This document shows positions 6,385-7,347 of a stretch of 9,920 nt of DNA, piece after piece. The notes under the pieces were generated by a model, which was given only the letters and a program-made list of their open reading frames with translations, was not told the origin of the DNA and ran no database searches. A program made the position numbers and the translations under genes. The stretch is taken from IMG/VR virus record IMGVR_UViG_2671180283_000021; one strand, 5' to 3'. The DNA is from a virus (Duplodnaviria > Heunggongvirae > Uroviricota > Caudoviricetes). Position 1 is the stretch's first letter; each line of letters begins with the position of its first letter.

Positions 6385-7347
6385 TTACCCCCTGAAGCCC
6401 GGCGGAATTTCAGTGTCCGGTTCAGAAATGTGATTCACGCAACGCTGCGCAGGTGAACGCCCCAGGCGGATAACCAGTTCATCCCATTTTTCCCGGAGTT
6501 TTGCCGGACTCATGATGTTTTTTACCCAGAACGAATCCCGCTGGAGACGCCCAAACATTTCACAAATTTGTCTGTGAGTTCTGCCATCCAGCATCCGCAT
6601 TGTGCGAACGTCATTGGCCCATGCTGTCCAGTTGGGTTCTTTCGGTCTAGTGATCTCGCCATCATCGCTGGCCGCCTGCTCGTAAAGACTCACGATTCGT
6701 CCCCAGATCCACTGTGCGCACACCAAATCTTCCTGACTTCCCCACTGGCGTTTTTTCGCACTGAACACAACCGCGTCAGGGTGTCGGGTTAAAAAATCCT
6801 GTTCAGCCATCTGCGGGTCCGGTTGCGAAGCGTCCGGACAAGAAGATCTTTTATCTGACGGATCAGGTTTTAATACTGACGGATCGGGGTCAATCATCGC
6901 CCCCCTAATCGGCAGTTTTTTATCAACAGTTGATCCATCAAAATTTAACGGGTCAACCGTTGAGGGGTCAATATTTGACGGGTCAACTGTTAACGGGTCA
7001 TTTTTTGCCGGGCTAATTTTTCTTTTCGGTTTATATGACTCACGCGCCGCCGCCGCAGCTGCTTCGAGTTTTTCCACATTAAGCCGATAGATATTGCTTA
7101 CATTACGCCCACCGACCTTACGCTCTTCCTTCGTCAGCCAGCCCTCTTTCGCCAGTTCTGCAATAGCCGATTTCACTGTGGATTCACTTCTTGCACCGAT
7201 CTGACGCCGGATAGTTTCAATGGCAGGCCATGACACGCCCTCGTCATTGCTGTAGTCTGCAAGACGGGCCATAACCGCCACCCTGGATAAGATCATGCCG
7301 GTGAAGGCGCACCCTTCCCAGACAAGACCATGAAGCTTGCTGCTCAT
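6385..7347 (-). CDS. Phage replication initiation protein: N-terminal HTH (HTH_36-like), pentapeptide-repeat linker, C-terminal DnaT-like domain
   Basis: Preferred start is the ATG at 7347, preceded by GGGGG; the supplied ORF begins at a GTG at 7362. The N-terminus (VSWPAIETIRRQIGARSESTVKSAIAELAKEGWLTKEE) resembles the replication-initiator wHTH. The C-terminus (...VNHISEPDTEIPPGFRG) closely matches what I recall of the E. coli DnaT C-terminus (...[13 protein letters not shown]). Internal xxVDP repeats are encoded by the iterons. Confidence 0.7.
   Translation of the reverse strand: MSSKLHGLVWEGCAFTGMILSRVAVMARLADYSNDEGVSWPAIETIRRQIGARSESTVKSAIAELAKEGWLTKEERKVGGRNVSNIYRLNVEKLEAAAAAARESYKPKRKISPAKNDPLTVDPSNIDPSTVDPLNFDGSTVDKKLPIRGAMIDPDPSVLKPDPSDKRSSCPDASQPDPQMAEQDFLTRHPDAVVFSAKKRQWGSQEDLVCAQWIWGRIVSLYEQAASDDGEITRPKEPNWTAWANDVRTMRMLDGRTHRQICEMFGRLQRDSFWVKNIMSPAKLREKWDELVIRLGRSPAQRCVNHISEPDTEIPPGFRG
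6855..7040. repeat. Putative origin of replication inside the rep gene: direct repeats, four tandem 15-bp iterons and an AT-rich tract
   Basis: CTGACGGATC occurs twice (6855..6864 and 6876..6885). Four tandem 15-bp units run from 6947 to 7006 (AACGGGTCAACCGTT, GAGGGGTCAATATTT, GACGGGTCAACTGTT, AACGGGTCATTTTTT), with the core (C/G)GGGTCA at a 15-bp period. They are followed by an AT-rich stretch (TTTTTTGCCGGGCTAATTTTTCTTTTCGGTTTATAT). The layout resembles lambda ori within gene O. Confidence 0.6.

Follow-up and report, generated by a model that had tools for sequence, protein, structure and literature searches.

How does a lambdoid prophage that encodes a replication initiator but no helicase loader bring the helicase to its origin? 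This question is raised by a gene in a 9,920-nucleotide stretch of DNA (the window) from the Caudoviricetes record IMGVR_UViG_2671180283_000021 of the IMG/VR database. Its product, the window protein, is a replication initiator of the lambda O family and consists of four parts, a winged helix, a linker, a helical domain of the lambda O type and a C-terminal tail that resembles the end of the primosomal protein DnaT of Escherichia coli (Table 1). The piece of DnaT that is copied by phage initiators is the structurally unmodelled C-terminal tail only, and across the surveyed prophages this tail goes together with loading by DnaC-type proteins or by the host and never with loaders of the lambda P type.

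The last 20 residues of the window protein (301-320, QRCVNHISEPDTEIPPGFRG) are identical to residues 160-179 of E. coli DnaT (reference sequence from strain MG1655) in 14 of 20 positions (pairwise BLASTP, E 1e-7), and the matching stretch forms the extreme C-terminus of both proteins. It follows the motif [VI]N-x-[IV]S-x-PD-x-x-IP-x-GFRG. A phmmer comparison with the PDB chains 2ru8, 6aep and 9zbt returned the same segment with E values of 0.009-0.03, and the NCBIfam model for DnaT (NF002770) aligned to residues 300-320 only (E 0.004; 16.8 bits against a cut-off of 201). The resemblance of the tail to DnaT exceeds chance. This tail of approximately 20 residues is also the sole part that the two proteins have in common. 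BLASTP of the C-terminal 135 residues against DnaT found no similarity beyond the tail, the Pfam model of the DnaT three-helix bundle (PF17948, covering DnaT residues 89-154 with the tail outside the model) did not match the window protein, and hhalign, run on the C-terminus of the window protein against DnaT, gave a probability of 81% when the tail was included, as opposed to 0.06% (E 0.75) once it was removed, both with shallow profiles (Neff of about 2) that could miss a very remote homology. The N-terminal oligomerisation domain of DnaT and the acidic linker by which it docks on PriB have no similarity to any part of the window protein in BLASTP; its N-terminus is a winged helix-turn-helix (wHTH) domain.

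A preliminary description of this DNA, made from the letters alone, had noted the likeness of the last 17 residues to the DnaT C-terminus, and 13 of these 17 are indeed identical. Its further suggestion of a fusion with a DnaT-like domain has to be given up, since the folded C-terminal domain matches lambda O and not the DnaT three-helix bundle. The two comparisons that it had proposed as checks gave divided answers: alignment with DnaT confirmed the tail and nothing outside of it, and the search with hidden Markov models (HMMs) placed HTH_36 above its cut-off, while the Pfam DnaT model found nothing and NF002770 stayed below threshold. We also considered a recent capture of the 3' end of dnaT and rejected it, as only 44 of 69 nucleotides are identical and the differences are mostly synonymous.

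The remainder of the protein was assigned by profile searches and by an AlphaFold2 model that was built on 99 homologues. Full-length membership of the family is indicated by phrog_391 ('replication initiation O-like'), in which residues 1-320 align with profile positions 1-298 of 298 (E 2.4e-115). Residues 25-71 score 27.9 bits with the Pfam family HTH_36 (PF13730), above its cut-off of 25 (E 2e-6), the model places helices and strands at residues 3-104, and Foldseek relates this part to wHTH regulators of the MarR/ArsR/PadR type. All of this agrees with the preliminary description, which had seen an N-terminal winged helix in what it took for a phage replication initiator. Pfam Phage_rep_O (PF04492), which is matched by lambda O, does not match the N-terminus of the window protein; HTH_36 and PF04492 are both winged-helix domains. 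Residues 153-300 are 35% identical to residues 145-277 of lambda O (BLASTP, E 5e-26), the helical domain within this region is modelled with a predicted local distance difference test (pLDDT) of 86-95, and it has 3130 relatives in a representative library.

If the tail is the only element shared with DnaT, the question arises how freely it is combined with other domains. We surveyed 98 full-length homologues in which the conserved C-terminal domain ends in ...SPxKLREKWDEL. What comes after this point differs: 26 carry a tail that ends exactly as that of DnaT (...PPGFRG), 30 a looser GFR[GST] version (...VDYSQIPAGFRG), another 30 an aromatic tail with the pattern WxxVL (...EWNTPEGWRDVL) and eight a GVLP tail (...NTNWIDGI...GVLP). 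The tail of lambda O itself, ...LDLTNTDWIYGVDL (...NTDWIYGVDL), belongs to the aromatic group, and distant representatives show the same range of types. On this alignment evidence the tail is an exchangeable short module on a conserved C-terminal domain. The GFRG tail is furthermore present on at least three other initiator scaffolds, being found on initiators that combine HTH_36 with Phg_2220_C, on the initiator of phage mEp460 with its different N-terminal domain, on a DUF1376 protein of the YdaU type in phage PhiR5_2 and on YdaU of the Rac prophage of E. coli K-12, which ends in ...VNTVSLPDSAIPPGFRG.

Tail class tracks loader class. For this comparison 167 loci were collected from genomes and viral contigs, their tails were classified, neighbouring genes were clustered and the clusters named by Pfam, and HMMs for lambda P and DnaC were run on both strands of each locus over 6 kb to either side. 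Grouping of the initiators at 90% identity gave 64 clusters. All 11 clusters with aromatic tails have a lambda P gene directly downstream; none has a DnaC homologue and none is without a loader. None of the 37 clusters with GFR tails has lambda P; three of them (34 loci) have a DnaC homologue at +7 nt and 35 have no loader, one cluster being counted twice because its members occur both with and without the DnaC homologue. The difference in lambda P between the tail types is significant (Fisher's exact test, p = 4.4e-11). GFRG tails are thus found with DnaC-type loaders or with none, and aromatic tails with lambda P. The phage loader that follows GFR tails is homologous to DnaC over its full length, with 48% identity to the E. 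coli protein (E 8e-88), and is itself followed by a DUF1627 gene. The same order of tail and DnaC recurs on unrelated scaffolds, in YdaU-YdaV of Rac, in the YdaU-like initiator and DnaC of PhiR5_2, and on the chromosome, where dnaT is directly followed by dnaC.

The loader-less state of many GFR-tailed loci was examined with HMMs and a Walker A scan. Six-frame translations gave no match to the lambda P or DnaC HMMs in the window, in the prophage stretch of E. coli 042, in mEp460 or in the loader-less GFR loci. An open reading frame (ORF) of at least 180 residues with a Walker A motif was absent within 6 kb on either side in 79 of 91 loader-less GFR loci, and no ATPase recurred among them. The 25.5-kb stretch of the E. 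coli 042 prophage that extends from cro to Q with flanks contains no loader gene between these two genes, the complete 45.9-kb genome of mEp460 gave no lambda P or DnaC HMM match, and the only Walker A ORF in both sequences is the terminase of mEp460. DUF977, encoded downstream of the initiator, was rejected as a hidden loader, as it is a small wHTH protein of the 'Ren-like' type. The window, the 042 stretch and mEp460 thus each have a replication module with neither a helicase nor a loader gene; Weigel and Seitz reportedly set apart such modules in 2006 as a category named 'initiator-solo'. The preliminary description had likewise noted the absence of a loader gene and had offered the DnaT-like C-terminus as its explanation. 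The absence stands for the window and for the equivalent module of E. coli 042. The explanation lacks such support: among 50 loci with an initiator at least 87% identical to that of the window, 31 have a DnaC homologue directly downstream, within a DnaC/DUF1627 cassette, and 19 lack the cassette, the two states differing by a clean indel of approximately 1.5 kb. The tail is therefore no simple stand-in for a missing loader.

According to classical lambda genetics, P interacts with the C-terminal portion of O. On this analogy, lambda P loaders would be the binding partners of aromatic tails and DnaC-type loaders those of the GFRG tail, so that the tail would select the helicase-loading route of its initiator. 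The wHTH domain would bind the iterons of an origin within the initiator gene, and in a phage without a loader gene of its own, as here, the initiator bound there would capture the host DnaB-DnaC complex through its tail. It would thereby take over, at the phage origin, the part ascribed to DnaT at a restart fork. That the tail engages DnaC-type loaders, in this prophage the host DnaB-DnaC, and so imitates DnaT instead of recruiting PriA, PriB and DnaT, is a proposition for which we see the arguments about evenly balanced. It is of interest with regard to the host as well. Preprimosome structures published in 2026 show PriA contacted by the DnaT bundle (residues 84-153, modelled from 4OU7) and PriB by the acidic linker; the tail of DnaT is unmodelled in them, and recruitment of DnaB/DnaC 'remains unknown' (PMC13377028). 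No paper in the literature searched gives a partner to DnaT residues 154-179, none deals with replication by YdaU/YdaV, and the paper on DnaC domestication does not mention DnaT. We tentatively suggest, with less confidence than for the engagement of DnaC-type loaders as such, that the GFRG tail is the missing element that hands DnaB-DnaC to the initiation platform, that dnaT-dnaC is the chromosomal counterpart of the phage cassette of a tail-bearing initiator and DnaC, and that loader-less phages take the host DnaB-DnaC by imitating the DnaT tail.

Several points weigh against an adaptor function of the tail. Binding of the tail to DnaC or DnaB is a prediction from sequence comparison. Tail and loader gene are adjacent, and linkage during mosaic exchange could explain their co-inheritance and inflate the correlation. 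Seen from the loader, the association holds as well, as 72 of the 75 IMG/VR genes located just upstream of this DnaC-like gene carry the tail at their end, spread over at least three scaffolds; these DnaC-like genes, however, are all at least 88% identical and do not represent independent sampling. The window prophage, split by cargo genes and an IS66 element, may be defective. The authors of the preprimosome structures favour the N-terminal domain of DnaT as recruiter of DnaB/DnaC (PMC13377028). DnaT residues 154-179 confer a 2-3-fold gain in affinity for single-stranded DNA (ssDNA) and in cooperativity (PMC4132743), and no other role for them was found in the literature searched. Finally, DopC, described as O-like and as having a 'DnaT C-ter motif', has a loader similar to lambda P as its partner (PMC5509034); should this motif correspond to the tail of DnaT and not to the bundle, DopC could count as a counter-example.

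Other explanations of the tail have to be weighed against the engagement of DnaC-type loaders. The preliminary description had proposed that the DnaT-like C-terminus could recruit the restart primosome of PriA, PriB and DnaT to the phage origin; on this model DnaB is then loaded via DnaC. We consider this unlikely, and specific support for it did not emerge: the DnaT bundle 84-153 that lies on PriA and the acidic linker with D66 and D70 that lies on PriB are both absent from the window protein, a protein with the DnaT tail alone would more naturally compete with DnaT, and the position of the tail directly upstream of phage DnaC homologues on at least four scaffolds points to a direct link of initiator and loader as between lambda O and P. 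Recruitment of the primosome would nevertheless be compatible with a tail that is genuinely DnaT-like, with the mostly loader-less state of its carriers (loader-less members occur in 35 of the 37 clusters) and with the host range, as every member with a name is from Enterobacteriaceae, the group in which PriB, DnaT and DnaC occur. Since the PriA pathway ends in DnaC too, the association with DnaC also fits, and the lack of a resolved tail in the preprimosome structure leaves room for a contact to PriA or PriB. Quite unlikely in our judgement is a role in the handling of DNA, by which the tail would raise the affinity for ssDNA or promote cooperative oligomerisation on the unwound origin with no protein partner. 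Such a role would be in line with the binding of dT30 by DnaT 84-153 with a Kd of 27 uM, compared with 9.9 uM for DnaT 84-179, and a lower Hill coefficient (PMC4132743), and DnaT and the initiator both act beside ssDNA; yet the motif (SEPDTEIPPGFRG), acidic and rich in proline, contains one arginine only, unlike an ssDNA-binding peptide, and the strict alternation of GFRG and aromatic tails by loader type would be left unexplained.

The tail might also be a functionless remnant that travels with the dnaC-like/DUF1627 cassette, which would have been deleted in the window, so that the prophage may not replicate alone. The occurrence of near-identical initiators with and without the cassette and the cargo genes and IS66 insertion of the window prophage can be read in this way. 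We hold it to be improbable all the same: across many genera, initiators that lack a loader have retained the motif under purifying selection, their linkers being divergent and the P-x-GFR[GS] end invariant, the changes in tail DNA relative to dnaT are mainly synonymous, and the complete genome of mEp460 has the tail and no loader. Least credible, and in our view very improbable, is an imitation of the C-terminal tip of the ssDNA-binding protein SSB that would dock on the SSB-binding pockets of host replication proteins. The SSB tip is acidic, ends in ...DDDIPF and is recognised through its terminal carboxylate. The acidic residues of the tail and the IP-x-GF after them, close to its end, fit this pattern, which is the whole of the likeness; the phenylalanine of the tail is not C-terminal, as RG comes after it, and no computed result supports such mimicry.

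Neither the gene nor its family nor the likeness to DnaT is new to the public record: homologues are named 'Primosomal protein I' or 'replication protein O' in phage records, and a parallel between O/P, DopC/DopE and DnaT/DnaC was drawn in the study of DopC (PMC5509034). Absent from the literature searched are the restriction of the shared part to the tail, as a swappable module, and the prediction of the loader class from the tail class. If the tail is an adaptor to DnaC or DnaB-DnaC, an old question of replication restart becomes accessible to a test at the level of a peptide, the replication of loader-less lambdoid phages such as mEp460 would be explained, and approximately 20 residues would predict the helicase-loading route of a temperate phage. 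As a handover element, the tail would place the DnaB/DnaC recruitment step of PriA-dependent restart in a peptide of 20 residues. If it is not an adaptor, the finding shrinks to an ordinary initiator of the lambda O family that was already annotated.

Comparison with known systems shows which features the window protein shares with each of them. With lambda O it has in common the N-terminal winged helix, a disordered linker with iterons in its DNA, the homologous C-terminal domain, a short tail and the position of the gene after cro and cII-like genes. It differs from lambda O in the family of the N-terminal domain (HTH_36, not Phage_rep_O), in the length of the iterons (15 bp compared with approximately 18-19 bp) and in a GFRG tail in place of ...LDLTNTDWIYGVDL, and the HMM scan of the window and the 042 stretch found no lambda P gene after the initiator. 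With E. coli DnaT (primosomal protein I) the window protein shares 70% of the residues in the final stretch of 20, which is C-terminal in each of them, and the dnaT-dnaC order is matched by the DnaC homologue after the initiator genes of many relatives; the oligomerisation domain and the PF17948 bundle are missing, and the window protein is predicted to bind an origin by its wHTH domain, whereas DnaT joins PriA/PriB at forks. The Rac genes YdaU-YdaV-YdaW of K-12 and the 'O'-DnaC pair of PhiR5_2 lie beside the same RacR/YdaS/YdaT immunity region; both have the DnaT-like tail on the protein at the initiator position (in Rac YdaU ...VNTVSLPDSAIPPGFRG), and PhiR5_2 has DUF977/LygF downstream. In contrast to the window protein, Rac YdaU is a DUF1376 protein with neither HTH_36 nor the lambda O C-terminal domain, and downstream of it come a DnaC-like protein of its own, YdaV, and the DUF1627 protein YdaW, both of which are missing in the window. 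DopC of the DopC/DopE pair shares HTH_36, a 'DnaT C-ter motif (2ru8_A)' and a derivation from lambda O, but is a domesticated chromosomal gene product with no iterons and no O-type C-terminal domain that is always encoded beside the lambda P-like DopE (PMC5509034); the window protein is prophage-borne, retains iterons and the O-type domain and has no P-like partner. Closest in organisation are 'Primosomal protein I' of phage mEp460 and its relatives (Evi, and HannyBb 'replication initiation O-like'), with the same C-terminal domain, a tail ending in ...RCMNHISEPDTEIPPGFRG, LygF/DUF977 downstream and no loader in the genome. The N-terminal DNA-binding domain of the mEp460 protein is a different one with no Pfam match, and its origin specificity is therefore presumably different.

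The putative origin is formed by iterons within the initiator gene. A direct-repeat family with a spacing of 15 was detected, and Tandem Repeats Finder (TRF) reported a period of 15 with 5.2 copies and also a period of 30. The consensus on the coding strand is TGACCCGTYAAnnnT, with a TCAA-N4-5-TTGA dyad in every unit. The array occupies initiator codons of about 112-142, between the two domains, and the four ori-lambda iterons have the matching relative place within O (codons of about 117-145). Judged by this arrangement, the in-gene array is probably the origin of the prophage, and the wHTH domain would be its binding partner.

Further observations concern the diversity of tails and initiators. 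Initiators with aromatic tails (L003, L005, L009-L013, L065 and others; lambda, L168:187-1086) have a C-terminal domain in common with the window protein and end in ...EWNTPEGWRDVL, ...HWNSPEAWENTL, ...NTDWIDGI... or, in lambda, ...NTDWIYGVDL; the lambda P gene after them always overlaps the stop codon of the initiator. It may be through these aromatic tails that O-type proteins bind P. Tails of prophages seem to be like the DnaT tail of their own host group, an impression that is not quantified and comes from a comparison of L050/L056 (Kluyvera), L047 (Kosakonia) and L058/L059 (Enterobacter) with the DnaT proteins P0170-P0205. Kluyvera prophages (L050/L056) have ...RDINAISQP... as in DnaT of Kluyvera and Phytobacter, Rac YdaU has ...VNTVS.PDS.IPPGFRG as in E. 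coli DnaT, and an unusual ...GFRGAK ending is found in some DnaT proteins (Yokenella) and in initiators of Enterobacter prophages. This suggests either exchange with dnaT or co-evolution with a common partner. Another group of HTH_36 initiators, of approximately 350 residues, ends in ...W(N/A)xIW(K/Q)... with a short end rich in alanine and glutamate (L026, L029-L035, L064, L068, L074-L078 and L086, from Providencia, Proteus, Yersinia, Buttiauxella and others). Its 15 clusters have neither lambda P nor DnaC nearby, and the additional segment at the C-terminus may be a loader-like module integral to the initiator. One protein cluster at 90% identity (P0242, P0427-P0440) mixes GFRG-tailed initiators of 323 residues with DnaC-like ATP-binding proteins of 242-246 residues from Enterobacter, presumably a clustering artefact from a fused or wrongly called ORF across the two adjacent genes.

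Table 1 Positions of the initiator gene, its parts and the neighbouring features in the window.
Feature	Position	Strand	Basis or remark
Initiator gene, 320 aa + stop, lambda O family (phrog_391)	6385..7347	-	ORF list; full-length phrog_391 match; same-length RefSeq coding sequence in E. coli 042
N-terminal winged-helix DNA-binding domain, residues 1-104, presumed iteron binder	7036..7347	-	Pfam HTH_36, AlphaFold2, Foldseek
Disordered acidic Asp/Pro/Ser linker, residues 105-177, iterons in its DNA	6817..7035	-	AlphaFold2 pLDDT <50 at 106-168; repeated DPS/TVD peptide motifs
Putative origin, six tandem 15-bp iterons	6923..7012	.	Repeat search, TRF
Two GATC-containing direct repeats (CTGACGGATCRGG), 21 bp apart, beside the iterons	6855..6888	.	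Repeat search
Helical C-terminal domain, homologue of the one in lambda O, residues 178-297	6457..6816	-	BLASTP, AlphaFold2
Disordered C-terminal tail, residues 298-320	6388..6456	-	AlphaFold2 pLDDT <50 at 298-311; DnaT matches at residues 301-320
DUF977/LygF ('Ren-like') gene, downstream of the initiator	5919..6344	-	Pfam DUF977 E 3e-28; phrog_142
Rac-type immunity and early region, upstream of the initiator	7370..8703	both	Pfam, NCBIfam, PHROG
YdaT/cII-like gene	7370-7795	-	Pfam YdaT_toxin; PHROG cII-like
YdaS/Cro-like gene	7779-8123	-	Pfam YdaS_toxin
RacR-like repressor gene	8227-8703	+	NCBIfam RacR E 1e-73
QueH (epoxyqueuosine reductase) homologue	5079-5765	-	Pfam E 5e-66
NgoMIV-family type II restriction enzyme and C-5 cytosine methyltransferase	2884-4900	-	Pfam E 1e-126 and E 4e-54
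IS66-family element, complete, three genes	31-2447	-	HTH transposase ORF, TnpB_IS66, DDE_Tnp_IS66 transposase
DUF1391 ORF and three small ORFs, flanking the region	8941-9174, 9174-9506, 9484-9837, 2462-2794	+, +, -, -	No Pfam match for the three small ORFs

The initiator gene is a real ORF with an ATG start, preceded by a GGGGG run similar to a Shine-Dalgarno sequence; an in-frame GTG at 7362 offers an alternative start that would add five codons. The protein has 99% identity with a cluster of 3163 proteins in RefSeq, and at least 80% of the stretch from 5900 to 7400 of the window is found in 405 of 5426 complete E. coli genomes. The gene belongs to the early region of a Rac-type lambdoid prophage. 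At the position of the DUF977 gene, the gene order of relatives comprises a DnaC-like gene, DUF1627 and then DUF977.

Between the replication genes and a restriction-modification pair lies the QueH gene, whose cluster has the same position in several related prophages. The restriction-modification genes are cargo in the early region of the prophage; their ORFs as listed overlap by approximately 120 nt, and since the Pfam match of the NgoMIV-type nuclease starts at residue 64 its true start is probably further downstream. The IS66 element makes up the left end of the window; it probably represents an insertion specific to the strain, because the best E. coli matches to the window end at approximately position 2533. 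An ORF of the DUF1391 family is located beside racR in K-12 as well, and the small ORFs at 9174-9506 and 9484-9837 are convergent and overlap.

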